Positions 1 through 55,407 of a stretch of DNA of 64,000 bases are shown here, in pieces. Positions within the stretch are counted from its first letter, which is position 1. Every line of letters begins with the position of its first letter. The position numbers were made by a program, and so were the translations under genes. The stretch is from the NCBI GenBank assembly GCA_934229625.1, contig CAKQDU010000001.1, positions 83,078-147,077 of the forward strand. Direction: 5' to 3'. The notes beneath the pieces are model-generated. The model worked only from the letters and a program-made list of their open reading frames with translations, was not told where the DNA came from and searched no databases. Origin of the DNA: an uncultured Alphaproteobacteria bacterium. GTDB taxonomy: Bacteria; Pseudomonadota; Alphaproteobacteria; RF32; CAG-239.

Positions 1-286
1 GCGTCAGCAAAAAGAGCAGATGGCAGCAATAAAGCAATATTGGAAGTCTGTGCAGCCAGAACTCAAAAGCTTTAGCCATAGTTCTGATGACGCGGTTAAA
101 AAAACTGCAGGTATGAAAATTTTGGAAATATCTGAAGAAAACTTTTCTTTGGACTATCTGAAACAGCAATACCGCCATGTTTTAACCGATTATGTGCAGC
201 CTTTGCAAGAAAGTGAGACAGATAAGGCAAAAAAAGAAAAAGTGCTGGAGGCTGTCTTTCAGGAATTGTACGGTTGGGCAATTTAG
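1..286 (+). CDS. hypothetical protein, 5'-truncated at window edge
   Basis: Open frame runs from the window start with no stop, through the listed ORF 20-286. No recognisable domain; faint J-domain-like YRHVLTDY segment but no HPD motif. Confidence 0.35.
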   Translation, partial: RQQKEQMAAIKQYWKSVQPELKSFSHSSDDAVKKTAGMKILEISEENFSLDYLKQQYRHVLTDYVQPLQESETDKAKKEKVLEAVFQELYGWAI

Positions 287-355
287 TTTTTGATGATACA
301 GCCGTATTGTTAAAAATTGAAAATGTTAATTCACTAAATGTTGTATTAAATTTTA

Positions 356-781
356 TTGACTATGAATATTGTAATTTTTATTGTATCTGCACTGGCAACA
401 TTAGCCTTGTGTATAGTTATTGTCAAATGTTTCGGCATAAGTCTTTTTGTTAAGTCAAGAGCTGAAGATTATATAAGTAATGTTTATACTATGATTGAAA
501 ATGAGAAGAATGGTTATCTTTATAAAAAAAGTGACTGTCCGCAGGATATAAAAAGTCAATATAAACATCTTATTGGGCATTGTAAATTTGAATATCTTTA
601 CGAAGATGCAAAAAAACTCTTGCATATTGGCAGTAGTTATTCGTTAGACGAACTGAACAAAAAGTGTAACAAACTCGGCAAACAGTATATGCCATCGCCG
701 GACTATACAGACAGTAAAAATATAGAGCTGCTGGATGAGCTGTGGAAATTATTTCAAGCCAAATATATATTATGGTCTTAG
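356..781 (+). CDS. hypothetical membrane-anchored protein
   Basis: 141-aa ORF with an N-terminal hydrophobic helix, followed by a terminator hairpin at 827-868. No recognisable family. Confidence 0.4.
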   Translation: MTMNIVIFIVSALATLALCIVIVKCFGISLFVKSRAEDYISNVYTMIENEKNGYLYKKSDCPQDIKSQYKHLIGHCKFEYLYEDAKKLLHIGSSYSLDELNKKCNKLGKQYMPSPDYTDSKNIELLDELWKLFQAKYILWS

Positions 782-878
782 TAGTATACTGTTCATATAA
801 TGTTGTAATCATATAATGTTGTAAACAAAAAAACTGCGGAAGTGACTATGCTTCTGTGGTTTTTTTTATGTAAATAAC

Positions 879-930
879 TTGACAAAAAACAAAATATCGC
901 TAAACTAAACGCATAATTTTATTTTTATGT
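879..930 (+). promoter_or_regulatory. conserved promoter-leader cassette (TTGACA 879-884, N16, TAAACT 901-906, leader CGCATAATTTTATTTTTATGT)
   Basis: Near-identical cassette recurs at 23250, 25299 and 26600. It drives ORF 951-1298. Confidence 0.55.
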
Positions 931-950
931 ATTCTTAATTTTTTTACAAG

Positions 951-1298
951 ATGTATAATTGTTATTTTAGATTGTTGGTCACAATTTTATTTTGTGTTTC
1001 AATTGTTTTATTGCCATTCAGTTCGAAAAGTGACATGCTCACAATGTTCTTTATCTTTTTGTTATTAGCATTTATGAGAATGCTGATGTCTTTTTATCTT
1101 CTTTTGAAGTGTAAATTGGAAGAAGAAAAGATATGGCAAAAAGCTTATAGTCCAGCTGAAATTGAAGCTGAATTGAATAGTAAAAAAGGACTTGGTTTGA
1201 TTTTATGCTGTGGCGTTCTGGTGCTGATTTTGGCTTTGATAGTTAATTGGAATGAAATTTTCAGAAATTTTTATGATTATGTGAGGTCTTTTTTTTAA
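951..1298 (+). CDS. hypothetical small membrane protein (2-3 TM)
   Basis: 115-aa ORF downstream of the conserved promoter-leader cassette. Hydrophobic segments flank a charged central loop. Confidence 0.45.
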   Translation: MYNCYFRLLVTILFCVSIVLLPFSSKSDMLTMFFIFLLLAFMRMLMSFYLLLKCKLEEEKIWQKAYSPAEIEAELNSKKGLGLILCCGVLVLILALIVNWNEIFRNFYDYVRSFF

Positions 1299-1387
1299 TT
1301 GAAACTCAAATCATTTAATTTGAAATTTATTGTCTATAAAGAACATTGGCGTTTTTATGTCGCCAATGTTTTTTTTGATTACTGTTT

Positions 1388-1657
1388 TTGCGGTTGTTTC
1401 AGTTAGTGAGCTGGAAAATTTTTGCCGCATTTTTGATTGTAATGTTTTGGGTTTTAATCAATGCCTTTTTACAGTTAGGTCTTAGCTATGTGTGGTATAA
1501 CAAACGCATAGAGCAAATGGCTGCCGGAAGTACAGTAAAATGCCGCAATGAATCCGACTTGGAAGATGAACTAGGTTCATCCGCCGCTTTGTTGAGCTAT
1601 ACAGTTACAACGCTTATAGGCAGGGCAGTGCTTGTATACATTTTCTTTTGTATGTAG
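1388..1657 (+). CDS. hypothetical small membrane protein
   Basis: 89-aa ORF, hydrophobic, followed by a hairpin terminator at 1664-1702. Weak evidence. Confidence 0.25.
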   Translation: MRLFQLVSWKIFAAFLIVMFWVLINAFLQLGLSYVWYNKRIEQMAAGSTVKCRNESDLEDELGSSAALLSYTVTTLIGRAVLVYIFFCM

Positions 1658-1663
1658 ACTGAT

Positions 1664-1702
1664 AAAAAAACTGTAAAATCATTAAGACTTCACAGTTTTT
1701 TG
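1664..1702 (+). terminator. intrinsic terminator of the recurring ACTGTnAAnTC...GACTTCACAG plus T-run family
   Basis: Imperfect hairpin ctgtaaaatc / gacttcacag followed by TTTTTT. Relatives at 25255, 26555 and 27162. Confidence 0.5.
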
Positions 1703-7441: not shown

Positions 7442-9661
7442 ATGGTTGAAGAAAATGCCAAAATAAAAGATGTGCAACTCGGCGAAGAATTGAGCAAACG
7501 TTATCTTTCGTATGCTATGTCAACCATTGTTTCACGTTCTCTGCCGGATGTGCGCGACGGTTTGAAACCTGTTCACCGCCGTTTGATGTATGCCATGCGT
7601 CAGCTGCATTTGGACCCAAAAAACGGTTTTAAAAAATGCGCACGCGTGGTCGGCGATGTTATCGGTAAATATCACCCGCACGGCGATACGGCGGTTTATG
7701 GCGCTATGGTGCGTTTGGCGCAAGATTTTTCGGTGCGCTATCCTTTGGTTGACGGGCAGGGTAACTTTGGTAATATTGACGGCGACGGCGCCGCTGCCAT
7801 GCGTTATACAGAGGCTCGTTTAACCGAATTTGCTATTGATTTGATGGACGGCTTAAACGATGATGCCGTTGATTTTATGGATACGTATGACGGCGAAGAC
7901 AGCGAGCCGGTTGTGATGCCGGCAATGGTGCCAAACTTGCTGTGCAACGGTTCTATGGGTATTGCCGTGGGGATGGCGACCAATATTCCGCCGCATAATC
8001 TGAGCGAAATCAGCGACGCTTTATTGTATTTGATTGAAAATCCTGATTGCGATGACGAACCGCTGGTACGCCGCCTAAAAGGTCCGGACTTTCCGACCGG
8101 AGGAGTGATTGTTGATTCTTTTGACACTATTTTGAATAACTATAAACAAGGCAAGGGAAGTTTTCGTATCCGCGCCAAGTGGACAACCGAAGATTTGGGA
8201 CACGGACAGTATCAAATTGTGGTAACAGAGATTCCGTATCAGGTGATAAAATCTAAACTGATAGAAAAAATCGCCGAATTACTTCTGAATAAAAAACTTC
8301 CGTTTTTAAGCGATGTACGCGATGAATCGGCGCAAGACGTGCGTATTGTGCTGGAGCCTAAAAACCGCACGGTGGACGCCGCCATGCTGATGGAGCAATT
8401 ATTCCGCCAAACCGATTTAGAAGCCAAGTTTAATATGAATATGAACGTGTTGGATTTGGATTGCGTGCCGAGAGTGATGAGTATAAAAGAAGTGCTGCAT
8501 GACTATCTGGTGCATCGCAACGCTGTTTTGCTGCGTAAAATTAAGTTCCGCTTGAGTAAAATCAATGCGCGTTTGGAAATTTTGGAAGGCTATTTAATTG
8601 CTTATTTGAATTTGGACGAGATTATCCGCATAATCCGCGAAGAAGACGAGCCGAAAAAAGTTATGATGGCGGAGTTTAAACTGACTGATAATCAGGCTGA
8701 AGCCATTTTGAATATGAAACTGCGTAACTTGCGCAAGCTTGATGAAGAACAGATTAACGCCGAACATTCCGATTTACTGGAAGAAAAAGCCAATCTGGAA
8801 ATATTGCATAATGATGAGGCGCAGCGCTGGAAGGCTATTGCCGAAGAAATTAAAAAAACTAAAGAAAAATACAGTAAAAAAACGGCATTGGGACGTCGCC
8901 GCACCGAATTTGCCGAAGCTCCGGCGGATATAGATGTTCCGGTGGAAGCGTTGATAGAAAAAGAACCGATTACGGTTATTTTGTCGCAAAAAGGCTGGAT
9001 ACGCTGCATAAAAGGTCATGCCGATTTGAACGATGAGTTTAAGTTTAAAGACGATGACGCGTTGCTCTATGCTTTGCATGCGCAGACTACGGATAAAATT
9101 GTGTTGCTGGATAACAAAGGCAAGTTCTTTAACATTGCCGCTAAAGATATTCCAAGCGGCCGCGGTTTTGGTCAGCCGGTGCGCCTGATGATAGATTTGG
9201 CAAACAATGACGATGTTGTGGCAATGTTTGTATATGAGGCTGGAACAAGCTATTTGATTGCTTCGGACAAAGGCTATGGCTTTATTGTTGATGAAAATCA
9301 TTTACTGGCGCAAACTCGTAACGGGCGTAAAATTATGAATGTCGCCGATGATGAAAATATGAAATTTTGCTTGCCGATGACCGGAGATTATGTGGCTGTT
9401 GTTGGTGAAAATCGTCGTTTACTGGTGTTTAAAGCCGAGGAAATCCCAACTATGGCGCGCGGTCACGGTGTGTTGCTGCAAAAGTATAAGGACGGCAATA
9501 TATCGGATATTCAAATTTTCAAAGGCGAGGACGGTTTCAGCTATAACCGCGCCGGAGGAGTCAGTACCGAAAAAGAGCTTATCGGCTGGCTGGGACACCG
9601 GGCGCAAATCGGTAAAGTCGTACCGTTCGGTTTCCCAAAGAACAACAAGTTTTTGAAATGA
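7442..9661 (+). CDS. parC: DNA topoisomerase IV subunit A
   Basis: 739 aa. Topo IIA A-subunit motifs ([30 protein letters not shown] active-site Tyr region). Length and lack of a GyrA box favour ParC. Confidence 0.85.
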
Positions 9662-9760: not shown

Positions 9761-10396
9761 TCAAAATTCTAATGATATATTACAATACGCGTTGGAGCTT
9801 TCACAAATTTTACAAGCCTCGTGAATTTCTTCCAATGAGGCTTGGGCAACGCATTTTATTTTCTCGTTGCAATAACTATCGCCATAAAACCATATACTTC
9901 TTCCGGTACCCCAAGCTGATGTTCTAACCGCAAAAACGACAGAGTGTAAAGGTTGTCCGAGATTTTGAAAAATAGAAACACATAGTTTGCTTGAAAAAGC
10001 CGGTGAAAAAAAGGTATCTTTTTTTGAAACTCCTCCGATGTAAAAATTTATTACTAATCTGTTATTGCGAGAAAATATATCAATCAAATTATTTTGACCA
10101 TCTTTTAAACTTTTCCAACCTTCATCATTGATAATCCAAGTTTGCGGTACTAAATTTGCAGCTTGTACATAATCATAAACAGGAACCATAGTATTATCGG
10201 AACTGAGATATTTAAGGTCATTAAGGTGTTCAAGCAATCCATAAATTAAGTAACTGTATTCTTCAATGAGTTTATTGCTTTTATATTTTTCCATGGCTTT
10301 GGAGTAACCGGCAATCCCACCGACGCTTAGTACAGCGATTATAGCAAGTACGCCGAGCATTTCTATCATGGAACGGCCTATTTGATTATATTTCAT
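9761..10396 (-). CDS. type IVb-like prepilin paralog P1 (short leader MKYNQIG, then RSMIEMLGVLAII...)
   Basis: Class III signal peptide with Glu at +5 and hydrophobic alpha1 helix. Conserved EYSYLIYGLLEHL. C-terminal FYGDxxC...CxxC...C motif. RBS AAGGAAG. Confidence 0.7.
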   Translation of the reverse strand: MKYNQIGRSMIEMLGVLAIIAVLSVGGIAGYSKAMEKYKSNKLIEEYSYLIYGLLEHLNDLKYLSSDNTMVPVYDYVQAANLVPQTWIINDEGWKSLKDGQNNLIDIFSRNNRLVINFYIGGVSKKDTFFSPAFSSKLCVSIFQNLGQPLHSVVFAVRTSAWGTGRSIWFYGDSYCNEKIKCVAQASLEEIHEACKICESSNAYCNISLEF

Positions 10397-11009: not shown

Positions 11010-11568
11010 GTTGCTGGATAACAAAGGCAAGTTCTTTAACATTGCCGCTAAAGATATTCCAAGCGGCCGCGGTTTTGGTCAGCCGGTGCGCCTGATGATA
11101 GATTTGGCAAACAATGACGATGTTGTGGCAATGTTTGTATATGAGGCTGGAACAAGCTATTTGATTGCTTCGGACAAAGGCTATGGCTTTATTGTTGATG
11201 AAAATCATTTACTGGCGCAAACTCGTAACGGGCGTAAAATTATGAATGTCGCCGATGATGAAAATATGAAATTTTGCTTGCCGATGACCGGAGATTATGT
11301 GGCTGTTGTTGGTGAAAATCGTCGTTTACTGGTGTTTAAAGCCGAGGAAATCCCAACTATGGCGCGCGGTCACGGTGTGTTGCTGCAAAAGTATAAGGAC
11401 GGCAATATATCGGATATTCAAATTTTCAAAGGCGAGGACGGTTTCAGCTATAACCGCGCCGGCGGAGTCAGTACCGAAAAAGAGCTTATTGGTTGGTTGG
11501 GACACCGCGCGCAGATTGGAAAAGTTGTTCCATTCGGATTTCCTAAAACAAACAAATTTTTCAAATAA
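11010..11568 (+). pseudogene. duplicated 3' fragment of parC (C-terminal 185 codons, no own start)
   Basis: 11010-11462 is identical to parC 9103-9555. The last ~100 bp carry mostly synonymous divergence. No ribosome-binding site or native start. Confidence 0.75.
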
Positions 11569-13680: not shown

Positions 13681-13695
13681 TTGAGGAGGAATAAG

Positions 13696-14424
13696 ATGTT
13701 TGATGGTATAGAATTTTTCAAAGGAAAGAGCAGAGGTGAGGGTTCTGGAGTGCTTTGCGTTGCTCGCAATGACGTTTGCTCTGCCGGTCGGTCAATGATA
13801 GAAATGCTCGGCGTATTGGCAATTGTCGGCGTGTTAAGCGTTGGCGGCATCGCCGGCTACTCCAAAGCGATGGAAAAGTTTAAGCTTAGTAAGGCTCTGG
13901 ATGAATACAGCTATCTTATTTATGGGTTGCTGGAACACTTAGATGAAATTAAATATTCCACTAAATCAGGAGATGGAAATGCTACTCCTGTTGTGGAATT
14001 AGCTAACAATTTGAATTTGGTTCCTCCGACATGGACAATGATAGCAAACAATCTTGATGTTCGTCATAAAAATTTATTTGAAGACCCATATAACAATCTT
14101 TTATCTATTTACTCAAAAGACGGAAATTTGCGTTTTGATTTTATTTTAGGCGGTTCGCAATTTCCGGACGAAGGCTCTTGGATAACTGAAAATTTTTCAA
14201 CCAAATTCTGTATGGAATTGGTAAACAATGTTGTCAAACCATTGCATTCTTCTTTGGAATTTTTATTTTTTTACAGGTCAAAAGGAAGCTCATCCACTTT
14301 TTATGGTGATAAAAAGTGTTCTTCCGGCCGCAAATGTTTGAGTGATATCAGTATAAAAGAAGTGTATGATAATTGCAAACGTTGCTCAAAAAAAGAAGTT
14401 TGTTCCGTAACTATAGACTTTTAA
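13696..14424 (+). CDS. type IVb-like prepilin paralog P2 with 31-aa leader
   Basis: Strong SD GAGGAGGA before the ATG at 13696. Leader ends ...CSAG then RSMIEMLGVLAIVGVLSVGG. Conserved EYSYLIYGLLEHL and the C-terminal 5-Cys motif ending TIDF. Confidence 0.7.
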   Translation: MFDGIEFFKGKSRGEGSGVLCVARNDVCSAGRSMIEMLGVLAIVGVLSVGGIAGYSKAMEKFKLSKALDEYSYLIYGLLEHLDEIKYSTKSGDGNATPVVELANNLNLVPPTWTMIANNLDVRHKNLFEDPYNNLLSIYSKDGNLRFDFILGGSQFPDEGSWITENFSTKFCMELVNNVVKPLHSSLEFLFFYRSKGSSSTFYGDKKCSSGRKCLSDISIKEVYDNCKRCSKKEVCSVTIDF

Positions 14425-14465: not shown

Positions 14466-14494
14466 CTTGCATAGGCAAAAATCGCTCCCTATAT
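14466..14494 (+). promoter_or_regulatory. sigma-32-like heat-shock promoter upstream of dnaK
   Basis: CTTGCAT - 14 nt - CCCTATAT resembles CTTGAAA-N13-15-CCCCATNT. Positioned 35 nt upstream of the dnaK RBS. Confidence 0.45.
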
Positions 14495-14529
14495 ACATTT
14501 TTAGAAATGAAAAAGGAGGATTTAAAATT

Positions 14530-16446
14530 ATGAGTAATAAAGTTATAGGTATTGACCTCGGTACAACAAACTCTTGCTTTGCCGTTATGGAAGGCAAAGA
14601 TGCAAAAGTTTTGGAAAACTCCGAAGGCGCACGCACAACGCCGTCTATGGTTGCTTTTACAGATACTGAGCGTTTGGTTGGTTATCCGGCAAAACGTCAG
14701 GCTGTTACCAATCCGGAAAATACCTTGTTTGCTATTAAAAGATTGATTGGCCGTCGTTATGATTCGGCAGAAGTAGAAAAATTTAAGGAACATTGTCCGT
14801 TTAAGATTGTTCCGGGTGACAATGGTGATGCTTGGGTAGAAGTTAAAGGGCAAAAATATGCTCCGTCTCAAATTTCGGCTATCGTTTTGCAAAAAATTAA
14901 GGAATATGCCGAGAGCTATTTGGGCGAAAAAGTAGAAAAAGCTGTTATTACTGTACCGGCTTACTTCAACGACTCTCAGCGTCAGGCTACTAAAGACGCC
15001 GGTAAAATTGCCGGATTGGAAGTTTTGCGTATTATCAACGAGCCGACAGCTGCCGCTTTGGCTTATGGTATGGATAAAAAAGCTTCCGGCACAATCGTTG
15101 TTTATGACCTCGGCGGCGGTACATTCGATGTTTCTATTTTGGAAATCGGCGACGGTGTGTTTGAAGTTAAAGCTACAAACGGCGATACATTCTTGGGCGG
15201 TGAAGACTTTGACCAACGTATTGTCAACTATTTGGCTGATGAGTTCAAAAAAGAAAACGGCATTGACCTGCGCGGCGACAGACTTGCCTTGCAACGTTTG
15301 AAAGAAGCTGCTGAAAAAGCTAAAATTGAATTGTCTTCAACAACTCAAACAGAAATCAATTTGCCGTTTATTACTGCGGATTCAACAGGTCCTAAACACC
15401 TGAACATCAAATTAACCCGCGCTAAATTGGAATCTTTGGTCGATGATTTGATTGAAAAAACAGCTATTCCTTGCCAGAAAGCTTTAGCCGATGCCGGATT
15501 AAAAGCCAGCGACATCAGCGAAGTTATTTTGGTCGGCGGTATGACTCGTATGCCGAAAGTTCAAGAAAAAGTTAAAGAAATTTTTGGACGCGAACCGCAT
15601 AAAGGCGTAAACCCTGATGAAGTTGTGGCTGTTGGTGCAGCTATTCAAGGCGGCGTGTTGATGGGCGATGTCAAAGACGTGTTGCTGTTGGATGTTACCC
15701 CATTGTCTTTGGGTATTGAAACTTTGGGCGGCGTGTTTACTCGTTTGATTGACCGTAACACCACTATTCCGACCAGAAAATCTCAAGTATTCTCTACAGC
15801 CGAAGATGGGCAAACAGCTGTGACAATCAGAGTGTTCCAGGGCGAGCGTGAAATTGCCGCACACAACAAATTGCTTGGCCAGTTTGATTTGGTAGGTATT
15901 CCGCCTGCACCTCGCGGTATGCCGCAAATTGAGGTAACTTTTGATATTGACGCCAACGGTATTGTAAACGTATCGGCCAAAGATAAGGCTACCAACAAAG
16001 AGCAAGCCATTCGTATTCAGGCTTCCGGCGGTTTGAGCGATGCCGAAATTGACCAAATGGTTAAAGACGCTGAAGCCAATGCCGAGTCTGATAAAAAGCA
16101 AAAAGAATTGGTAGATGCTAAAAACCGTGCCGAAAGTCTGGTTCATGAAGTTGAAAAGAACTTGAAAGAATTTGGCGACAAGGTTGCCGAAGCTGATAAA
16201 AACAGCATTACAGCCGCTGTCGATGCCGTAAAAGCCAGCATGGAAAAAGAAGACCTTGAAGACTTGAAGTCCAAGACCGACGCTTTGATGCAGGCTTCTA
16301 TGAAACTGGGAGAAGCTATGTATAAAACACAGCAGGCTCAAGGCGCTCAAGGTGCGGCACAGGGTGCTGATACCGGTGCGGCTTCCGGCGAACAGCCAAA
16401 GAAAGATGACAACGTAGTTGACGCTGATTTTGAAGAAGTTAAATAA
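14530..16446 (+). CDS. dnaK: molecular chaperone DnaK (Hsp70)
   Basis: [23 protein letters not shown] and [17 protein letters not shown] motifs. RBS AAGGAGG. Start chosen at 14530, not the ORF-track 14467. Confidence 0.95.
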
Positions 16447-16468
16447 CGTTGCTTTGTTAAAGAAAATA

Positions 16469-16501
16469 TCCGTTTCAGCAATGAAACGGGTATTTTTTTT
16501 T
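16469..16501 (+). terminator. intrinsic terminator after dnaK
   Basis: ccgtttcagcaatgaaacgg hairpin followed by a T-run of 10. Confidence 0.7.
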
Positions 16502-16506
16502 GCTTG

Positions 16507-16568
16507 TTGACATTTATCCTGAAAAACATATACTAAGCTAAATGTTAAATTTTTAATTCTTAATTTTT
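16507..16568 (+). promoter_or_regulatory. promoter TTGACA-N16-TATACT with type-2 leader (TTAAATTTTTAATTCTTAATTTTTATG)
   Basis: The leader is closely related to the leaders of the genes at 24558 and 25385. Confidence 0.45.
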
Positions 16569-17189
16569 ATGACAAACAATATTATTAAATTTTCGCAGAA
16601 AAACATCCCGAAAATTAAAGCCGGTATGTTTTGGTATGATGACGACACTTTTTCAGCTGATTTAATTGCAGATAAAAAAGTTAAAGCCGTCGTTGAGTTG
16701 GTGGATACGAGCTTAGGTGTTGTTTATGGCGACATTTTAATACCTGATAAAAAAATGAAGTGGGCTAAAGCTGAAAAATATATTGAATTTTTCAACGAAT
16801 ATACCCGAACGGATGATTATTGGGTAAGAAAGGTTTTGTGCGAATATATGGTAAGTATATTTGCAGAAGATGACATGCAGCGCTACATTTTTGAATTTGT
16901 CAGAAGTAAGCACGTTGGTTCGCCAAATGCAAAAATCTGTTTATATGATGATTTTCAGTATCTTGATGTAAAATCTTCTGCCTATAAAATCAAAGCGGCT
17001 TTTGAAAAATTGCATAAAACTTCTCGTTTTGATAAAGTGAAAGGCTTTTTCAAAATAGCGCGGAAAAGAAATTATTGGACTGAAACAGCCGGAAAAAGAG
17101 AACGGTGGAATTTGGCTTTTGTACCGTCCATTGCCGGAAGAAAAATGTATGTTCGTCCGGTTTTGGCAATGGCTGTTTTTGAGTGGTAA
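16569..17189 (+). CDS. hypothetical protein occupying the position usually taken by dnaJ
   Basis: 206 aa, no recognisable domain. Own promoter and a terminator at 17196-17231. Confidence 0.45.
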   Translation: MTNNIIKFSQKNIPKIKAGMFWYDDDTFSADLIADKKVKAVVELVDTSLGVVYGDILIPDKKMKWAKAEKYIEFFNEYTRTDDYWVRKVLCEYMVSIFAEDDMQRYIFEFVRSKHVGSPNAKICLYDDFQYLDVKSSAYKIKAAFEKLHKTSRFDKVKGFFKIARKRNYWTETAGKRERWNLAFVPSIAGRKMYVRPVLAMAVFEW

Positions 17190-21443: not shown

Positions 21444-23243
21444 TTGTATATGTATAAGTTTTTGATTTTTTTGAGTGCTTTATGGTGGTGCAACGCGGCA
21501 ATGGCGGCGGAAATTCCGGCGTATGACGAGGCGTGGCTTAAATTGTTGCATTATCATAAAACGCTCGGCGGCTATCGTGGTTTGGTAGAAAATCAGGATT
21601 TTTATATAAGTCCGGACGGACGGGAAAATCCCATTGCAGAATTTGAGGCGGAAATTAAGGCTTTTGCTGATGGAGCAGAAAAGTGCCGTTTTCCGGCAAG
21701 ATTCAATTATTTGAAACAGTTGGGAAAAGTGCAGGGTGATTTAAAAAATTGCAATGATTATCAGCAATTTATGCAAGATGTGCGTCCGAATGGTATTACT
21801 ATTTTGTTTACCAATGCTTATATGAGTAATCCGGCTTCGTTGTTCGGTCATACGCTGGTGCGTATAGATACGGCGCGCAAAGGGACGCAAATGTTAGCGC
21901 ACGGTTCAAATTTTGGGGCGGATTCCGGAACAGAACACGGTGTTATGTTCGCACTCAAAGGCTTATTCGGCGGATATCTTGGAGTATATAGCGTCAGTCC
22001 GTATTGGGAAATAATAAATACCTACAATAATATCGAAAATAGAGATATTTGGGAATATAATCTTAATTTAACAGATGAAGAAAAACAAAAGTTTGTCGAC
22101 CATCTTTACGAAATGCGGCAAGCCAAAATCCGCTACTATTTTTTAAGTAAAAACTGCTCGTATCTGATTTTGGAATTACTGGAGGCGGTGCGCCCGAGTT
22201 TGGAGCTGACCAGACAATATCCGGCGTGGGTAATTCCGTTGGATACGCTCAAAACAATCAATAACGAGCCGAATTTGGTTAAGTCACAAAACTATCGTCC
22301 GGCGCGCTATACGCAAATTCAAAATTTGATAAAAGCAATGAATAAGCAACAATATGCCGCATTTTTGCGCGGTATAAAAGAATATGATTTTACGGCGGAA
22401 AATTTATCAGATGAGGAAAAATCAGCTGTTTATGAGGCGATTTATCAATATTTTCAATATGAATACACCGCTGGAAATATGCCGCTGAAAGAATATCGAA
22501 AGGCTAGTTTCGGCGTGTTGCGCAAACGCAGCGCTTTGCCGATTGGGGAAAAAGTTCAGCCAGTTGGTGAAAATCCGGCGTTGTCGCACGATTCTATGCA
22601 AATATCATTCAGCGGCGGGGCGGAACGCCATAAAAGCTTTGAAGAAGTGGAAATCCGTCCGGCTTATACGGCGTTGACAGATAGCAGTTTCGGATTGGTT
22701 AAAGGGGCGGAAATCAGCGTGATGTCCAGCAAATGGCGCTATTATAACCAATCTCACAAAACTGTTTTGCAAAATTTTGCGCCGATAAAAATTAAATCCT
22801 TAGTGCCGGCGGGCAGGGTGTTTGACCCGATTTCTTATGCCATCGGTGCGGAAATTAAACGCGATTATAATCCGCAGAATTATGATGAAGGTTATGTCGG
22901 TTACGGCTATGGCGGAGTAGGTAAAACCATTGCGTTTCCGGCAAATATTTGGCTTTATGGTTTGCTGAAAGTTAACGGTGCGTACGGCGGTTTTATTCCG
23001 CACAACAGCTGGGGCGGATTGGCGCCGGAAATTGGAATTTTAAAAGATTTTGGCGCGGTGCGGCTGCATTTTAACGCCGAAAAAACATGGGCTACCCGTA
23101 AATTCGGCGACAGGCTGATTTATAAAGCTGCCGCTTCGCTAGGTATAACGGATAATTTATCGCTGGAAATCGGCTATGAGGGAAGTCACAATATTGGCCG
23201 CAACAGCGAAAGCTGGCAGCTTTGGCTGCAAAAAAGCTTCTGA
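21444..23243 (+). CDS. DUF4105 (Lnb N-terminal domain) protein with C-terminal beta-rich domain
   Basis: 599 aa, signal peptide. AWLKLLHYHKT...YISPDGRENP...CRFPARFNYL pattern typical of DUF4105. Confidence 0.5.
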   Translation: MYMYKFLIFLSALWWCNAAMAAEIPAYDEAWLKLLHYHKTLGGYRGLVENQDFYISPDGRENPIAEFEAEIKAFADGAEKCRFPARFNYLKQLGKVQGDLKNCNDYQQFMQDVRPNGITILFTNAYMSNPASLFGHTLVRIDTARKGTQMLAHGSNFGADSGTEHGVMFALKGLFGGYLGVYSVSPYWEIINTYNNIENRDIWEYNLNLTDEEKQKFVDHLYEMRQAKIRYYFLSKNCSYLILELLEAVRPSLELTRQYPAWVIPLDTLKTINNEPNLVKSQNYRPARYTQIQNLIKAMNKQQYAAFLRGIKEYDFTAENLSDEEKSAVYEAIYQYFQYEYTAGNMPLKEYRKASFGVLRKRSALPIGEKVQPVGENPALSHDSMQISFSGGAERHKSFEEVEIRPAYTALTDSSFGLVKGAEISVMSSKWRYYNQSHKTVLQNFAPIKIKSLVPAGRVFDPISYAIGAEIKRDYNPQNYDEGYVGYGYGGVGKTIAFPANIWLYGLLKVNGAYGGFIPHNSWGGLAPEIGILKDFGAVRLHFNAEKTWATRKFGDRLIYKAAASLGITDNLSLEIGYEGSHNIGRNSESWQLWLQKSF

Positions 23244-23249
23244 AATTTC

Positions 23250-23310
23250 TTGACAAAAATTACAAAATAGGATAAATAAAAGACATAATTTTATTTTTAT
23301 GTGTAACTTA
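23250..23310 (+). promoter_or_regulatory. conserved promoter-leader cassette (TTGACA-N17-TAAATA; leader CATAATTTTATTTTTATGT)
   Basis: Sequence identity with the cassettes at 879, 25299 and 26600. Confidence 0.55.
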
Positions 23311-23323
23311 AATTATTTGGCTT

Positions 23324-23794
23324 ATGAATTTTTATCGTAATTTTATGGCTAAGCATGAGGAAAAAATTTCCGGCTTTGAAGTTCTTTTAATGCTTGTTAT
23401 TACCGCATTTTTAGGAGAAATGTTTATTTTTTCCTTGTCTGTGGCGGATAGAACATCTAGCTTGGTTCTTTTTGTGATGCTTGTTTTAAGCTTGGCGTCT
23501 GTTCATTACTTTTGGGTGTTTTTGGCAGACTATAAACAGTTTGGCAAGGATATTGATGAGGCCTGTAAGCAAGCAGAAAAGAAATGGGGCGAGGCTAAGA
23601 AAAAATTTGAAAAAGAAAAGGATGCTGAATTTAGGATTGCATTTAGAAAAATTAAGCTGGATGTGGTTAAGTTTTGTATCTGTTTTCTGCCCGTAGGTTT
23701 GCTCGGGTATAAAGTTGACTGGTTGCCGATTTTTCATAATGTAAATGAATGGCTGAATGTACTGAGCAATATCTTTGTTGGAATTTTAAACTAA
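23324..23794 (+). CDS. small membrane protein, family A copy 1
   Basis: 156 aa. Paralog of 26673-27155, collinear similarity (VLFVMLVLSLASVHYFWVFLADYKQFGK... versus VLFAMLILGLLSIYWFSVFLADNKKFAK...). Confidence 0.5.
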   Translation: MNFYRNFMAKHEEKISGFEVLLMLVITAFLGEMFIFSLSVADRTSSLVLFVMLVLSLASVHYFWVFLADYKQFGKDIDEACKQAEKKWGEAKKKFEKEKDAEFRIAFRKIKLDVVKFCICFLPVGLLGYKVDWLPIFHNVNEWLNVLSNIFVGILN

Positions 23795-23799
23795 ATTTA

Positions 23800-23838
23800 A
23801 AAACTGCGGAGATATAACAATTTCCGCGTTTTTTTATT
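23800..23838 (+). terminator. intrinsic terminator
   Basis: gcggagatataacaatttccgc hairpin plus TTTTTTT. Confidence 0.6.
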
Positions 23839-23845
23839 TTAAAAC

Positions 23846-23910
23846 TTGACAAAATATCAAAATATCTTAGAGTAACTGACATAGTTTTATTTTTATGTAT
23901 AATTTAAATT
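23846..23910 (+). promoter_or_regulatory. variant promoter-leader cassette (TTGACA ... TTTTATTTTTATGT)
   Basis: Shares the -35 element and leader core with the other cassettes. Confidence 0.45.
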
Positions 23911-23918
23911 ATTAAGGT

Positions 23919-24362
23919 ATGAAAAATGTTTTATATGTTTTATTTGTTGGATGGCTTATATATTTAGGCATTCCTATGCTGTTTGTCACAAAATTTGGCA
24001 TTATAGCATTGTTTATTTTTTCTTTTTGTCTTTCGATGTTTATCGTTAGGCTAATTAAAAATAATGAAAAGTACGAGCTGTATTCGGATATTTATGATAA
24101 AATAGAAGCTGCTCGAACTGATTGTATAGATTCAGAAACAAAGATTAAGGAAATTTTGGACGAATATAATCTTAATATTGACGCATTTAAAATTGTCGGT
24201 TTGGAAATATTGAACAGAAAGTCGGAGGCGCGTACTGCTTCTGTAGATAATGAACATGCGATTCTATATACTTTGTTACTTGGGTCGTTATTTGTATTTC
24301 CGGCTATGATTGATGAGCCTTTTACGATTATAAATAAATTTTGGGAATCTGTGATATTTTAG
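23919..24362 (+). CDS. small membrane protein, family B copy 1
   Basis: 147 aa. Paralog of 26099-26545 (shared EKYELYSDIYDK / EKYELYSEVYDK and NLDI motifs). Confidence 0.5.
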   Translation: MKNVLYVLFVGWLIYLGIPMLFVTKFGIIALFIFSFCLSMFIVRLIKNNEKYELYSDIYDKIEAARTDCIDSETKIKEILDEYNLNIDAFKIVGLEILNRKSEARTASVDNEHAILYTLLLGSLFVFPAMIDEPFTIINKFWESVIF

Positions 24363-24480
24363 AACAGAGTGATAAAAAACGTGAAAGCGATAAAGTTTTT
24401 GCCGTTTTTATATATAAATCCATGCAGAAAAGAGAGATTTATCAGTTTGGCTGAAAAATCTCTTTTTTTGTGCAATTATC

Positions 24481-24557
24481 TTGACAAAAAAACAAAGATA
24501 TGTTTAATATAAAATGAATTTTGTATATTTATGTTTAATTTTTAATTCTTTTTTATT
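24481..24557 (+). promoter_or_regulatory. promoter TTGACA-N18-TAATAT plus type-2 leader (TATGTTTAATTTTTAATTCTTTTTTATTATG)
   Basis: The last 36 nt are identical to 25349-25384. Confidence 0.5.
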
Positions 24558-25199
24558 ATGATTGTAAATATTAATGCAAGTGCTGATAGTCCTGTTTATT
24601 TTGAGCTGAACGAAGCTGATGAAATTGTTATCGTCGGTGACAAAAAGGATGAGCTACTACGTTATTATATGGGTAAAAGTTTAAATGGACCTGAAATAAA
24701 ACATCCAACAAGACCGAAATTGTGTGTTGATGACTGTAAGGATTGGCATATTATCGTTACATTTAGATGCACTCAGAATGTTATGGTTAATGGTCTAGTT
24801 GCCGAGTTAACTAATGATATTGTAGTTCATGGTTTAGTTGCTGAGGTAATTAAGGAGTGTTTAAAAAAAGGTTCTTCATTTGATTACAAAGATGAAAATT
24901 TGCATTTTGTGGATGAACAAATACAGTTAAAAAGTAAGGTTGATATTCTTGAAAGATGTGTTAGACGTCTCGCAAAAATGCAAAATAAGGTTAATACTAT
25001 AGAAGGTCATATTGCTGGTTTTGCGCAAATGCAAAATAGAATTAACACACTTGAAAACTGTGTGAAACGTCTTGCGCAAATGCTTAATAAGGTTAATACT
25101 AACAGACGCTCTATTGCAGGTAATATTGATATTCTTGCACGTAAACTCAAGGATATTGAAGATGACCGTAATCACGCATACGATGATTGGCAGAGTTAA
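24558..25199 (+). CDS. coiled-coil protein with two ~35-aa C-terminal repeats
   Basis: 213 aa. Repeats ERCVRRLAKMQNKVNTIEGHIAGFAQMQNRINTL / ENCVKRLAQMLNKVNTNRRSIAGNIDILARKLKDI. Confidence 0.45.
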   Translation: MIVNINASADSPVYFELNEADEIVIVGDKKDELLRYYMGKSLNGPEIKHPTRPKLCVDDCKDWHIIVTFRCTQNVMVNGLVAELTNDIVVHGLVAEVIKECLKKGSSFDYKDENLHFVDEQIQLKSKVDILERCVRRLAKMQNKVNTIEGHIAGFAQMQNRINTLENCVKRLAQMLNKVNTNRRSIAGNIDILARKLKDIEDDRNHAYDDWQS

Positions 25200-25254
25200 A
25201 TTTGATAATGAGCCTTATTATAACTAATAGCTTTTTACCATGTATTTATCTAAA

Positions 25255-25289
25255 TTCAAAGAAACTGTGAAGTCATTATGATTTCACAG
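25255..25289 (+). terminator. intrinsic terminator (ctgtgaagtcat / atgatttcacag plus T8); identical copy at 26555-26588
   Basis: Near-perfect 12-bp stem with one mismatch, then TTTTTTTT. Confidence 0.7.
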
Positions 25290-25298
25290 TTTTTTTTG

Positions 25299-25384
25299 TT
25301 TAAAATGATTGACAAAAATTAAAAGCATCGCTAAACTAAATACATAATTTTATATTTATGTTTAATTTTTAATTCTTTTTTATT
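25299..25384 (+). promoter_or_regulatory. conserved promoter-leader cassette (TTGACA-N17-TAAACT) fused to type-2 leader
   Basis: About 110 bp including the upstream terminator is near-identical to 26550-26660. Confidence 0.6.
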
Positions 25385-25966
25385 ATGAGTGCAGAATTTT
25401 GGAATTATGTTACAAATCATCATTTGGATGTTTTTGTATTTGTTGCAATGTGTGTAATGTTTTTTTCATGTCTGCTGTTAACAATTTTATTTTTTGTTTT
25501 TAAACAAAATTATAAATGCAAGCAGCAGGAAACGGAAGGTAAACTTCTTGAGGCAGAGCGCAAGCAGCAAGAAGCGGAAAGCAAACTTCTTGAGGCAGAA
25601 CGCAAGCAGCAAGAAATCAACCAGCAGTTTCAACAAGCCAGGAAAAAACTTTTTGAGTCTGAAAAACTTCGCTTTAGCATGGTCGGAATTCCCGGAGATG
25701 AATATTGGAAAAGCGCCATTTCTAAATACGAAATATTTAGAACGTATGACGATTTTAACGATGAAAGCAAAATGAAGCGCCAAGCTATCGCTCTCCAAAT
25801 TTTTAAAATGCCGAACAAAGAGTTTACAAAGGCTGAATTGTACAAACAATTTAAGCAGTTGTATAAGGACTATATTGGCATTTTGCCTGGTTATGATGTC
25901 ATGAAGCCTGCCAAAGAATATATATTGAAATCTATTTATACCGAATTGTACTTTAGTGTAAGTTAA
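25385..25966 (+). CDS. membrane-anchored coiled-coil protein with tandem KLLEAERKQQE repeats
   Basis: 193 aa. N-terminal TM helix. 42-bp tandem DNA repeat at 25541-25615. Confidence 0.5.
   Translation: MSAEFWNYVTNHHLDVFVFVAMCVMFFSCLLLTILFFVFKQNYKCKQQETEGKLLEAERKQQEAESKLLEAERKQQEINQQFQQARKKLFESEKLRFSMVGIPGDEYWKSAISKYEIFRTYDDFNDESKMKRQAIALQIFKMPNKEFTKAELYKQFKQLYKDYIGILPGYDVMKPAKEYILKSIYTELYFSVS
25541..25615 (+). repeat. about 1.8 copies of a 42-bp in-frame tandem repeat
   Basis: aaacttcttgaggcagagcgcaagcagcaagaagcggaaagc repeated with one substitution. Confidence 0.8.
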
Positions 25967-26098
25967 TACATTACTTAATAGATATTACCCCGAATTTACA
26001 GGTGAATATCTATAGAAAAGCCAACTTTCAGGCTTTTTCTTATTGCTGCAATACGTTATATTGATTTTCAATAGTTCTCATTTTAAATTATTAAGCGC

Positions 26099-26545
26099 AT
26101 GAAAAAGTATGTATATGTTTTTGGTATCTTATGGTTAATAGCTATAGGTGTACCATTATTATTTAATCCAACCATTGCTTTAGGAGTTGTGTTTTTTCTA
26201 TCGTGCATCGGCGTTCCATTTTGGGCATCAGAATTTGAAAAAATTGAAAAATATGAGCTTTATTCTGAAGTGTATGATAAGTTATATGCTATTAAGGAAG
26301 AAAATTTTGATGTATATTATAAGACTCAAAAAATTTTAGCTTCATATAATCTTGATATTTGGACTAAGAATGCTTTAAATATCGTTAAATCTAAAAGAGA
26401 TGCTGCTTTTGAGGAGTGTCAGGAAAATTATGTAACTTTTAGATTTTCGCCTATAGTTATAATAATATGGTTTATGTTACCATTGTTTGGAAATGAGGCT
26501 CCTTTTGAAGTGGTTTGGGGATTTTGGAAGACAATGATACTTTAA
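26099..26545 (+). CDS. small membrane protein, family B copy 2
   Basis: 148 aa paralog of 23919-24362. Confidence 0.5.
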   Translation: MKKYVYVFGILWLIAIGVPLLFNPTIALGVVFFLSCIGVPFWASEFEKIEKYELYSEVYDKLYAIKEENFDVYYKTQKILASYNLDIWTKNALNIVKSKRDAAFEECQENYVTFRFSPIVIIIWFMLPLFGNEAPFEVVWGFWKTMIL

Positions 26546-26554
26546 TGATAAAAA

Positions 26555-26588
26555 AACTGTGAAGTCATTATGATTTCACAGTTTTTTT
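26555..26588 (+). terminator. intrinsic terminator, copy of 25255-25289
   Basis: Identical hairpin plus T-run. Confidence 0.7.
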
Positions 26589-26599
26589 GTTTAAAATGA

Positions 26600-26672
26600 T
26601 TGACAAAAATTAAAAATATTACTAAACTAAACGCATAATTTTATTTTTATGTTTTACTCAAATTATTAGCTT
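26600..26672 (+). promoter_or_regulatory. conserved promoter-leader cassette (TTGACA 26600-26605, N17, TAAACT 26623-26628)
   Basis: Identical core to the cassettes at 879 and 25299. Confidence 0.6.
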
Positions 26673-27155
26673 ATGATTTTGAATGAGATTAACAACTATG
26701 AGGAAAAAATTGCAAAAGAAGAAAAATACTCTGAATTTGCGTTTTTTGTAGGTGTGATTTATGTAATGTTTTTTGGCTTTGCATTTATTCATTCCCTGTC
26801 TTCAGCGGATAAAACTTCAAGTTTTGTTTTATTTGCAATGCTGATTTTAGGACTGTTGTCTATCTATTGGTTTTCAGTATTTTTGGCGGATAATAAGAAA
26901 TTTGCTAAAGAAGTATTTAAAGCTTGGAGACAAAGTGAAAAAATGTGGGGAGATGCTAAAGAAAAGTTTGACAAAGAAAAAAATGCCGAATTTGAAATTA
27001 TGAGTAAAAAAGTTAAGGGCAATATTGTTAAATTTGGAATTTTCTTTTTCTCTACTGCCTTGTTGAGTTTAAAAGTTGATTGGCTGACTGTTTTCCATAA
27101 TATGGCAGAATGGCTGCATAATTTAGGAGCTATCTTTGTTGGAATTTTCAGCTAG
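26673..27155 (+). CDS. small membrane protein, family A copy 2
   Basis: 160 aa paralog of 23324-23794. Confidence 0.5.
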   Translation: MILNEINNYEEKIAKEEKYSEFAFFVGVIYVMFFGFAFIHSLSSADKTSSFVLFAMLILGLLSIYWFSVFLADNKKFAKEVFKAWRQSEKMWGDAKEKFDKEKNAEFEIMSKKVKGNIVKFGIFFFSTALLSLKVDWLTVFHNMAEWLHNLGAIFVGIFS

Positions 27156-27161
27156 ATTCAA

Positions 27162-27198
27162 AAAAACAGTGAAATCGTTAGGACTTCACTGTTTTTTT
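27162..27198. terminator. bidirectional terminator of the same hairpin family (cagtgaaatc / gacttcactg)
   Basis: Hairpin flanked by A7 and T7, between convergent A2 and def. Confidence 0.6.
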
Positions 27199-27199
27199 G

Positions 27200-27742
27200 T
27201 TATTTCTTTTGTTCAGCTTCTCTGGCTTTGTCTTCATAGTATTTATCTAGTTTTTTTAAAAGCCTGCTGCGTTTTAGGCGGCTCAAGTGGTCAATGTATA
27301 AAATGCCATCCAGATGGTCTATTTCATGCTGCAAGATAATAGCTAAAAAATCATCAGCCAAAATCTCTTGTTCTTTGCCGTTATAGTCAACATAGCGCAC
27401 ACGGACTTTTTCGTGACGCTCCACATCGGCGCTTTGATTTGGCAGGGAAAGACACCCCTCGCAAAACAGCACAGTTTCTTCCGATTTCCAGATAATTTCA
27501 GGATTTACTAAATACATCGGGCGGCGAGCAGATAAATCTTCATCGCTTGGGTTAGGGTCTATCACAATCACACGCTTATCCGAACCGACTTGCGGAGCAG
27601 CCAAGCCAACACCCTTGTCGGCATACATTGTTTCCAGCATATCGTCTAAAAAGCGGCGCATTTCATCGTCAACTTTTTCTACCTTACGGCATTTTTGCCG
27701 CAAAACATCATCAGGATAAGTATATAATTTCAAAACAGCCAT
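27200..27742 (-). CDS. def: peptide deformylase
   Basis: GVGLAAPQVG, EGCLS and QHEIDHLDG motifs. Confidence 0.9.
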   Translation of the reverse strand: MAVLKLYTYPDDVLRQKCRKVEKVDDEMRRFLDDMLETMYADKGVGLAAPQVGSDKRVIVIDPNPSDEDLSARRPMYLVNPEIIWKSEETVLFCEGCLSLPNQSADVERHEKVRVRYVDYNGKEQEILADDFLAIILQHEIDHLDGILYIDHLSRLKRSRLLKKLDKYYEDKAREAEQKK

Positions 27743-37471: not shown

Positions 37472-38119
37472 ATGAATAAAAATGTTAAAAACAGGCAGTG
37501 CAGCGGTCGCTCAATGATAGAAATGCTGGGGGTACTATCTATCATCGGCGTGCTGAGTGTCGGCGGTATTGCCGGTTATTCCAAAGCTATGCTGAATTAT
37601 AAATTAAATAAATCTGTCGAAGCACATCGCGATGTTATATTTGGTCTAGTTCATTATAAAGATAGGCTAAAACCGGCAGAAGGTCAGAATTTAATCAATG
37701 AAGAAGTGGCATCTTTAGGACTTAAACCTAATAATTGGCGCAAAGATGGTGTTTATCTGATTGATGATATGAATAACACGATATTTATTGGTATTTATGG
37801 CGATGATAAACATATAGGATATGAAATCAGAATGCCTGCCAGAACGATTTCTCATAATGCAGATGGAAAAGTAGTGCAAAGCTATCCTTATAATTTTTGC
37901 GTGACAGCTATTAAACAACTGATTATTCCGTTGTCGGAAATGATTGAGGAATTTTCTTTTTATAGAACTAAAAGCGGTTGGGATTCTTTTTATGGCAGTA
38001 AATTTTGTGGTAAAGATTGCAAATGCATAAGTCAAATAAATGTTTCTCAGATGTTCGCCGAATGCCAGACTTGCGGTAAATCTGACGGTGAAGGTTGTTC
38101 AATTATCTTAAAATTTTAA
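37472..38119 (+). CDS. type IVb-like prepilin paralog P3 (12-aa leader)
   Basis: MNKNVKNRQCSG then RSMIEMLGVLSIIGVLSVGGIAGYSKAM. C-terminal FYGSKFCGKDCKC...CQTCGKSDGEGCSIILKF. RBS AGGAGG. Confidence 0.65.
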   Translation: MNKNVKNRQCSGRSMIEMLGVLSIIGVLSVGGIAGYSKAMLNYKLNKSVEAHRDVIFGLVHYKDRLKPAEGQNLINEEVASLGLKPNNWRKDGVYLIDDMNNTIFIGIYGDDKHIGYEIRMPARTISHNADGKVVQSYPYNFCVTAIKQLIIPLSEMIEEFSFYRTKSGWDSFYGSKFCGKDCKCISQINVSQMFAECQTCGKSDGEGCSIILKF

Positions 38120-38297
38120 ATGATTGATAAGATATATATTGATGCAAAATCGTCTGGTGGCTTAGGTTGACTTAATTTATTGCGAAGCGGTTAAATCTTT
38201 GAAACATATTTTATATAATAGCCATTTGTCGCATAATGTTTATTATGTATATTTAATGATACTAAAAAGCCATCAGCAGCTGAATTAATCTATAATT

Positions 38298-55063: not shown

Positions 55064-55407
55064 ATATTGAACTCCTAAAAAATTACAGAAAAACCGCTTA
55101 AAATAAGCGGTCGGAGAGTTCAACAATCATATCTGCTTAAATGATTCTTTTAGCCTTTAAAGCCATATTGTGTCAGAGATATATTATACAGCTTTTGAAC
55201 ATACGCTAAAAGCTCCCCGACCATATTGCTATGTATCGGGGATATATTTAGCTATCGGCAATAATCAAACCGCCGATAATTTAACGATGTTATATCCTAA
55301 CACCGAAGCAGATAAGAGCCGTTGAAAGCTCCGCGCTAACCGCGCTTGTTTTAATATATAAAGAAATAAAATAAAAAGCAAACAAATTCTTATGGGATAA
55401 AATTTTA

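Follow-up and report, generated by a model that had tools for sequence, protein, structure and literature searches.

The 64,000-nucleotide stretch analysed here (the window), part of contig CAKQDU010000001.1 from an uncultured Alphaproteobacteria bacterium, carries an island of small genes at positions 23250-27200. Six open reading frames (ORFs), A1, B1, CC, CC', B2 and A2, were found on the plus strand at the coordinates proposed by an earlier sequence-only reading of the same DNA, and the GC content of the island (28-35%) lies below that of its flanks (40-44%). A1 (23324..23794, +) encodes a 156-aa orphan membrane protein with 3-4 transmembrane (TM) segments and a charged helix, and A2 (26673..27155, +) encodes its 160-aa paralogue (52% identity, E 2e-52), which adjoins def in every strain where it is seen. 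B1 (23919..24362, +) encodes a 147-aa orphan membrane protein with three TM segments, paralogous to the 148-aa product of B2 (26099..26545, +) at 30% identity (E 5e-19), which bears out the two paralogue families that had been proposed. The two middle genes show no relationship to one another (E 17). CC (24558..25199, +) encodes a 213-aa soluble protein with an N-terminal domain and 34-aa repeats, and CC' (25385..25966, +) a 193-aa protein with a TM anchor at residues 12-41, KQQEAE-type repeats and a C-terminal four-helix J-like domain that lacks the HPD motif. The repeats noticed earlier are thus present in both, with periods of 102 nt in CC and 42 nt in CC', but the term coiled-coil protein under-describes CC'. 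As had been remarked, no toxin, lysin or secretion gene adjoins the island, and the whole window is free of secretion and toxin genes.

Window positions 1-1700 are the smaller other part of the same island, with 23250-27200 as its larger half. This part opens with the 3' portion of a CC'-family gene (20..286, +), truncated by the window start, whose product ends in the J-like domain (BLASTP to the CC' C-terminus, E 2e-5). The following gene T (356..781, +), which has a close homologue in P0020, encodes a protein with an N-terminal membrane anchor (TM 1-32) and a C-terminal region alignable to the J-like domain. A cassette copy reported at 879-930, 22 kb away from the six genes, proved to belong to a full module of terminator, promoter and box (828..946, +) that is 79% (94/119) identical to 26550-26668. 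It precedes gene D (951..1298, +), whose 115-aa product has 3 predicted TM segments and groups distantly with family A in transitive BLASTP clustering. Gene E (1388..1657, +) is degenerate in the window strain, where an alignment of eight copies shows a replaced 5' end and an 11-nt deletion, and is intact in other strains at 108-117 aa; close to its start, strains differ in the length of a T-run, which has 5 to 10 T (L003, L004, L006, L007, L010, L019, L042). A hairpin terminator (1660..1701, +) of the family shared with the larger half closes this part against DUF192.

Promoter, box and terminator modules

The genes of the island are separated by a recurring non-coding module, which in its full form consists of the -35 element TTGACAAAA, a spacer of 16-18 nt, a weak -10 element and the box CATAATTTTATTTTTATGT. 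Module P1 of A1 (23250..23323, +) combines TTGACAAAA, 17 nt, TAAATA, the conserved box and a leader, and module P2 of B1 (23846..23918, +) has TTGACAAAA, 16 nt, TAGAGT, the box version CATAGTTTTATTTTTATGT and a leader. In module P3 of CC' (25309..25384, +) and in the module of A2 (26600..26672, +), TTGACAAAA, a 17-nt spacer, TAAACT and the box are followed by a leader, which for CC' is of the type found before CC. Nearly every gene had been credited with its own promoter; the full module is indeed present for four of the six, but CC is preceded by a degenerate version with the CC-type leader (24481..24557, +), and B2 in the window strain by a leader only. A full module does stand before B2 in two other strains (L008 and L010). 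Likewise, the supposedly identical leaders of CC and CC' are nearly so (39/41 nt up to the ATG), and the 110-bp terminator-plus-promoter block at 25250-25360 and 26550-26660 is duplicated as described, with the two copies 88% (99/113) identical rather than the same.

The 19-mer box CATAATTTTATTTTTATGT occurs five times in the window at up to three mismatches (912, 23284, 23880, 25343 and 26634), each time 27-28 nt downstream of TTGACA, against a chance expectation of 0.34; five copies were reached in none of 100 shuffles. Looser promoter-like variants that lack the conserved box were found at 11626 and 16507. At the latter site, where a variant of the cassette had been noted (16507-16568), the promoter and the CC-type leader were recovered and the conserved box was not; this variant module (16497..16568, +), with its TTGACA promoter, is predicted to drive an orphan gene after dnaK. 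In this dnaK region (14467-17189) no dnaJ follows dnaK, and its place is taken by the orphan gene (16569-17189, 206 aa) with its cassette-type promoter; the island, for its part, encodes HPD-less J-like proteins. The site at 11626 follows a partial duplication of the gene for ParC, topoisomerase IV subunit A (7442-9661), the last 185 codons of which recur 1.9 kb downstream (11011-11568) at 98% amino acid identity, with an exact 300-nt repeat (9103-9402 and 11010-11309).

Across 35 non-redundant cassettes, information peaks at TTGACAAAA and TTTATTTTTATGT, while the spacer and the -10 element vary, the latter retaining a TAnAnT pattern at a fixed position. Most copies of the box form a 6-N8-6 inverted repeat, RCATAA...TTATGT. 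In cassettes that carry gene E the left half (CATAA) is gone, only TTATTTTTATGT is kept and the spacing is 4 nt longer, which weakens the case for a strict palindromic operator or Xer site. An RNA hairpin was dropped as the role of the box, as the box folds like shuffled sequence (about -3 kcal/mol, z about 0), and an Rfam search matched no family. Several further candidates were tried and set aside: a conserved upstream mini-ORF starting at the ATG of the box would give unconserved peptides of 3-13 codons with stops as expected by chance in AT-rich sequence; resemblances to CtrA, Fur and LexA boxes did not fit; and a phase-variable promoter homopolymer was discounted, the A-runs being only 4-6 nt long. 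An AU-rich composition characterises the leaders, most of which have no Shine-Dalgarno sequence, unlike those of neighbouring core genes. From the consensus we conclude that the modules are probably functional sigma-70-type promoters with a common element at about +1, which may serve as a site for protein binding or as a signal in the leader. Having the promoter and this +1 box in common would place all cassettes under one control.

At the other end of the genes, a hairpin terminator had been assigned to each. Five of the six pass the test for intrinsic terminators, with a G+C stem-loop followed by a T-run of about seven, and the hairpin after CC' (26015..26038, +) is weak (z -1.1). Folding energies of the strong hairpins range from -13.6 to -19.1 kcal/mol and their z-scores from -4.2 to -6.2; an A-run precedes each stem and a T-run follows it. 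Those of A1 (23799..23836, +; -13.6 kcal/mol, z -4.4) and B1 (24426..24469, +; -19.1 kcal/mol, z -4.2) are among these, and a single terminator family has copies at 1660, 25254, 26546 and 27156. This family serves CC (25254..25295, +; -17.8 kcal/mol, z -6.2 for the family), B2 (26546..26587, +) and, at the right edge of the island, both A2 on the plus strand and the convergent def on the minus strand (27156..27197; A-run and T-run flanked, -14.4 kcal/mol, z -5.1).

Cassette order and allele reassortment among strains

The strain comparison took in about 35 related contigs. A motif scan of one genome per species returned six contigs, all homologous to the window at 80-96% identity, three of which belong to Hadza-gut metagenome-assembled genomes titled 'uncultured Alphaproteobacteria'. 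A metagenome motif scan returned 37 contigs; 20 of these were relatives and the other 17 were unrelated AT-rich chance matches. Protein look-ups added 14 loci. The other three of the six species-scan contigs (L006, L007 and L008; CAVGVF01, CAVIDY01 and CAVKTH01) come from bins titled Eubacteriales or Bacteroidaceae and are probably mis-binned, because they are 88-91% identical to the window over kilobases. A set of environmental matches (L013, L021, L023, L032, L034, L045 and L047) has its own promoter-like repeat, TTGACAAAATTCACTATTATAATTTA...GTTTATTTTTATGT, and this repeat is a separate family in another organism. Among the scanned representative genomes the exact promoter-plus-box motif matched island-bearing contigs only, and by these sequence matches the island appears so far in one clade of uncultured human-gut Alphaproteobacteria.

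Comparison of cassette order across these strains, which the sequence-only reading had proposed as a check, revealed at least ten different orders or contents. The window reads Lnb-[A1 B1 CC CC' B2 A2]-def and, separately, [CC'-like T D E]-DUF192. In L005 the array is [CC'-like F X58 A1 B1 CC' B2]-DUF192; in L004 and L019 it is Lnb-[F X58 B1 H A1 E]-DUF192; and in L048-L056 it is Lnb-[F X58 B1 H A1 X93 D D2 X61]-Dtd. L003 has Lnb-[CC'-like F X58 A1 E], followed by two minus-strand orphans and DUF192, and L020 begins Lnb-[A1 B1 F X58 ...]. Next to def we find [E A2] in L006, [A1 E A2] in L007, [E' E B2] in L010 and, in L009 and L039, the 3' end of E with a promoter attached to it. In these last two contigs (L009 6154-6260 and L039 23-75) a full module is joined to the last ~50 nt of E in what resembles a deletion scar. 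In L003 the A1-type gene is split by a frameshift (9862-10333), with a matching 42-aa fragment in P0024. As A1-B1 occurs in some strains and B1-H-A1 in others, the mirror order A-B-CC-CC'-B'-A', to which the sequence-only reading had drawn attention, has no special meaning and is therefore one permutation among many.

The comparison further shows gain and loss of whole cassettes between short direct repeats. L005 lacks exactly the CC cassette: its alignments to window positions 23243-24564 and 25348-26594 have 44 nt in common, and these are the shared leader. Moreover, an allele table shows that terminator, promoter, leader and gene all reassort: A1-type genes stand behind five promoter types, promoter P1 precedes A1, F or G, and terminator T3 follows CC, B2, E and one further gene. 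Some junctions coincide with the box, some with the -35 box, and others lie in the gap from gene end to terminator, so that the conserved non-coding blocks are the sites at which genes, promoters and terminators have been reassorted between strains. The proposal that the genes behave as individually recombining units at conserved boundary modules is upheld by these orders and by the independent reassortment of alleles, and the alternative that had been named against it, copies confined to this locus and explained by one tandem duplication with no rearrangement between strains, is clearly not what was found.

The edges of the island are also breakpoints of chromosomal rearrangement. On the left it is bordered by DUF3015-Lnb and on the right by def, DUF192 or Dtd, depending on the strain, and the two halves of the island, which lie 21.5 kb apart in the window, are joined in L003 and L005; it follows from the variable right flank and the joined halves that the island is a breakpoint for large rearrangements. 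In other strains, synteny breaks coincide with repeats shared by the flanks of five paralogous genes of the window (9761-10396, -; 13681-14424, +; 37472-38119, +; 54341-55126, -; 59026-59745, -), whose products are 33-52% identical, with an N-terminus that by eye is prepilin-like (GRSMIEMLGVLAIVGVL), a Cys-rich C-terminus and no Pfam match. A further pair of tandem paralogues (61550-62365 and 62397-63206; 37% identity) encodes proteins that each have an N-terminal membrane anchor.

We then compared synonymous (dS) and non-synonymous (dN) divergence of island and flanking genes in the same strain pairs. In the island, dS was 0.00-0.045 for B1, 0.01-0.09 for A2, 0.02-0.08 for B2 and, in the closest strains, 0.00-0.06 for A1; in the flanks it was 0.37-0.58 for Lnb, 0.52-0.76 for def and 0.72-0.79 for DUF192. 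Similarly, L005 and the window are 94-96% identical in the island and 81% identical in the adjacent core. Other alleles of A1 are deep (dS up to 0.84), with a distribution that does not follow the flanks. The dN/dS ratio was 0.02-0.13 in the flanks, 0.2-0.5 for the deep A1 alleles and 1.2-2.6 for B1, the last value resting on about three synonymous changes and statistically indistinguishable from neutrality. The low dS of the island relative to its flanks points to cassettes having spread horizontally, and recently, between diverged lineages while selection on them was relaxed or diversifying, and the ORFs, being intact in most strains, represent real genes.

These data also bear on whether the island could be a simple, diverged local tandem duplication with immobile units, its variants being assembly artefacts. 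Such an origin would suit the pairs of paralogues and the modules that are duplicated inside a single strain, several contigs are short or of low coverage, and L026 resembles an inverted-repeat artefact. However, independent samples, and contigs of more than 100 kb, show the same alternative arrangements again, alleles are reassorted and not merely copied, divergence of the island genes is far below that of the flanks, and five species-level genomes have differently composed islands. We therefore regard a local duplication as highly improbable.

Membrane cargo and its possible roles

The cargo of the cassettes comprises at least 14 families, almost all of them predicted inner-membrane proteins of 33-160 aa. 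One to four TM segments are predicted in nearly all (A, D, D2, B, E, F with 33 aa, X58, H with 71 aa, X61, X93, CC' and T), and only CC and G look soluble. Searches of all cargo against Pfam, PADLOC and PHROG gave no significant match, only sub-threshold compositional ones, and a lead on '8xMP' produced no relevant literature. The sequence-only reading had called the small polytopic proteins compatible with immunity, holin-like or effector-chaperone roles; none of these libraries lent such a role a significant match. For families A and B and the CC' domain, the only ones taken to large protein collections, a word-indexed search of 5.8 billion proteins and a full HMMER scan of 1.84 billion representatives revealed no relatives outside the island clade and none beside a toxin. 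Family A is represented by four clusters in the former and four matches in the latter, and family B by 13 close clusters. All locatable A and B matches that were followed up lie in the island, with the exception of P0002 (L057 531-1085), in which a TnpV-like N-terminus is joined to the C-terminal half of A2 (99% identical). P0002 was considered as a link to mobile elements and set aside as a probable chimeric assembly, its contig having 2.5x coverage and unrelated neighbouring genes.

The AlphaFold model of A2, with six helices, is poor (predicted local distance difference test score, pLDDT, 52.7) and unsuitable for a fold search, and the C-terminal domain of CC' was modelled at pLDDT 89.5 as a four-helix J fold, with which a PDB profile search and Foldseek weakly agree. 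In the family formed by CC', T and ORF 20-286, the position of the HPD motif reads HPL, FPL, QPL, APL, LPG or SPD, and the Pfam DnaJ model matched none of eight members up to E 10. The E/K/Q-rich repeat linker of CC' varies in length. Taken together, the model and the searches identify the CC' proteins as membrane-anchored J-like proteins with variable E/K/Q linkers. They share an N-terminal anchor, a linker and a C-terminal four-helix J fold with DjlA and Tim14/Tim16, and with Tim16 also the lack of HPD; they differ from J-domain proteins in the missing Pfam DnaJ match, the repeat linker of variable length and their location in a shuffling island.

We considered the possibility that the island is an array of orphan immunity genes directed against the membrane-targeting toxins of competitors, similar to the acquired interbacterial defence (AID) and recombinase-associated AID (rAID) arrays of gut Bacteroidales. 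Small polytopic membrane proteins with short outer loops suit an intramembrane mode of immunity, as known for immunity proteins against pore-formers. The elevated dN/dS would agree with such a role, as would a weak resemblance of A1 to DUF6708 that stays under the threshold (E 0.0011; 19.3 bits where 27 are required); a DUF6708 protein of Stenotrophomonas is listed as a type VI secretion system immunity protein (PMC13340143). The resemblance to rAID-1 extends to the gut habitat, low-GC co-directional small genes, repetitive intergenic regions and strain-variable content (bioRxiv 10.1101/471110), and the six co-oriented genes of 28-35% GC with their recurring intergenic modules conform to this description. 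Unlike rAID-1, the island has no XerD-like recombinase at its 5' side, neither in the window nor beside the arrays of 20+ related loci, is alphaproteobacterial and encodes nearly exclusively membrane proteins. It has no homologues of known immunity proteins, its cargo gave no significant match to any immunity, defence or Pfam family, all homologues of A, B and the CC' domain reside in the same island and never beside a toxin, and the 64-kb window itself is devoid of secretion or toxin genes. An immunity array is a tentative proposal that we rate well below an even chance.

Alternatively, the cargo might consist of small toxic or lytic membrane proteins, resembling type I toxins or holins, with the box as an operator that keeps them off. 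F (33 aa), X58, X61 and H (71 aa) are tiny, very hydrophobic proteins with 1-3 TM segments, the strong -35 element is combined with a conserved +1 element where a repressor would act, and CC' has weak PHROG matches to Rz-like spanins (E 0.014-0.07). The spanin matches are, however, compositional (a TM segment plus a charged coil) and not significant. By the size and hydrophobicity that characterise type I toxins (<60 aa, hydrophobic), F and X58 would qualify, but most of the cargo is far larger, and A and B, at 147-160 aa with long cytoplasmic helices, are unlike type I toxins. Furthermore, no endolysin or phage genes were found, Rfam revealed no antisense RNA (no search beyond Rfam was made), and the genes are intact in most strains, the frameshifted A of L003 and the degenerate E of the window being exceptions. 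A toxic or lytic cargo therefore seems quite unlikely. Instead, we weakly infer that the cargo comprises accessory inner-membrane factors under relaxed or diversifying selection; their likeliest role, put forward with low confidence, may be protection against membrane-acting toxins or phages.

Possible routes of exchange and relation to known systems

We consider it probable that the island is a hypervariable, low-GC array of one-gene expression cassettes near the probable replication terminus. Each cassette would consist of an intrinsic terminator, a promoter with an invariant TTGACAAAA (16-18 nt spacer, TAnAnT), an invariant, T-rich (A/G)CATAATTTTATTTTTATGT box, a leader and a small orphan gene. 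Exchange would occur by homologous or short-homology recombination between the repeated modules of 20-110 bp, partly with DNA taken up from related strains, and would involve no dedicated recombinase. Neither a recombinase nor a transposase was found in any island flank (window and flanks of 20+ related loci), which makes short-homology recombination the likeliest mechanism.

A candidate chromosomal dif site (38226..38253, +; TTGTCGCATAA-TGTTTA-TTATGTATATT) lies between convergent genes at the cumulative GC-skew maximum and matches E. coli dif, GGTGCGCATAATGTATATTATGTTAAAT, at 20/28 positions (E. coli sequence: PMC3025954). It is the only exact RCATAA-N6-TTATGT in the window and, among 61 loci, is conserved in L058-L061 and absent from the others. 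This position puts the probable terminus about 11 kb away from the island. As a rival reading, the box could be a dif-like site of Xer type at which the housekeeping XerC and XerD move the cassettes, comparable to integrative mobile elements exploiting Xer (IMEX) or the dif modules of Acinetobacter; this would explain mobility with no dedicated recombinase. Most boxes read RCATAA-N8-TTATGT, with the same inner hexamers as the candidate dif (CGCATAA-TGTTTA-TTATGT) and E. coli dif (PMC3025954), and the right arms of some match the XerD arm of dif at 9-10/11 positions. An 8-bp centre is found in some plasmid sites too, Xer sites whose central region exceeds 6 bp do occur in nature (PMC3025954), the island sits near where the GC skew shifts, and several promoter-to-gene junctions fall exactly at the box, including that of an L029 gene that lacks the usual leader.

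Several features are, however, difficult to reconcile with an Xer site. The centre of the box is 8 bp, T-rich and highly conserved, in contrast to the variable 6-bp centre of classical sites (PMC6449649), and cassettes of the E type lack the left half altogether. All boxes are direct repeats on the same strand, whereas dif modules alternate, and their fixed distance from the -35 element suggests a role in expression. Junctions also occur at the -35 box and between gene end and terminator, a mosaic that a single site cannot explain, and the candidate dif lies 11 kb off, not at an island border. We consider Xer-mediated movement improbable.

A broader version of the idea would treat the modules as a portable adaptor for both expression and recombination, forming an integron-like system that is free of an integrase and works by short homology or by host Xer at the dif-like box. 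We hold this for possible, with odds clearly against it. Returning to the array of cassettes exchanged by short homology, some considerations weigh against it as well. The mechanism is deduced from the positions of junctions, and a site-specific route at the box may apply instead, while the prediction of the promoters, and of a role for the +1 box, is based on consensus. Most contigs are metagenome assemblies in which repeats may be mis-joined, and some end inside the island; against this concern, the same arrangements recur in independent samples. The low dS could partly reflect constraint at the nucleotide level rather than transfer, and the B1 ratio above 1 is compatible with neutrality. 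As for the protective role of the cargo, the homologues of A, B and the CC' domain are never found beside a toxin, and the A2 model is of poor quality.

The island shares features with several known systems. Integron arrays, super-integrons included, likewise consist of one-directional single-gene units with a recurring non-coding element, variable content and order, orphan genes and skewed composition. In contrast to integrons, the island has no intI, attI or Pc, and no Phage_integrase domain occurs in any flank; its cassettes appear self-promoted (TTGACA-N16-18-TAnAnT) and end in the stem-loops of intrinsic terminators, not in attC, and its junctions are spread over several conserved blocks where integrons would have a single crossover point. 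In Mycoplasma vlp/vsp loci and in the minimal mobile elements and Correia repeats of Neisseria, conserved 5' blocks, exchange through flanking homology and repeats that supply promoters or terminators are found. As with vlp/vsp, each island gene is predicted to form its own transcription unit behind a near-identical 5' non-coding block; unlike these systems, the island has no surface lipoproteins, phase-variable homopolymer or invertase, and carries many unrelated cargo families. The dif modules and IMEX (PMC6449649, PMC13141974) resemble it in their small modules, inner palindromes of CATAA/TTATG and absence of a module-encoded recombinase, and the island likewise lies near the candidate chromosomal dif. 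In the island, by comparison, the boxes have an 8-bp and not a 6-bp centre, are in direct orientation and occupy the predicted 5' untranslated region at a fixed distance from the promoter, one cassette class has lost the left arm, and junctions occur elsewhere in the module as well. Lacking the defining features of integrons, rAID arrays and dif modules, the island is filed as a hypervariable cassette array outside any named family.

As it stands, the island is an example of the apparently recent spread of orphan genes across lineages in an uncultured gut bacterium, beside a terminus where large rearrangements break. It defines more than 12 families of small membrane proteins and a membrane-anchored, HPD-less J-like family, presumably under one shared control element, as a tractable set. 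If the array is as we propose, cassette arrays can be built and traded with no dedicated recombinase, and a single short non-coding module would serve for expression while also offering the homology needed for exchange. Should the modules moreover act as portable adaptors, gut Alphaproteobacteria would be trading ready-to-express membrane-protein genes across species near the terminus.

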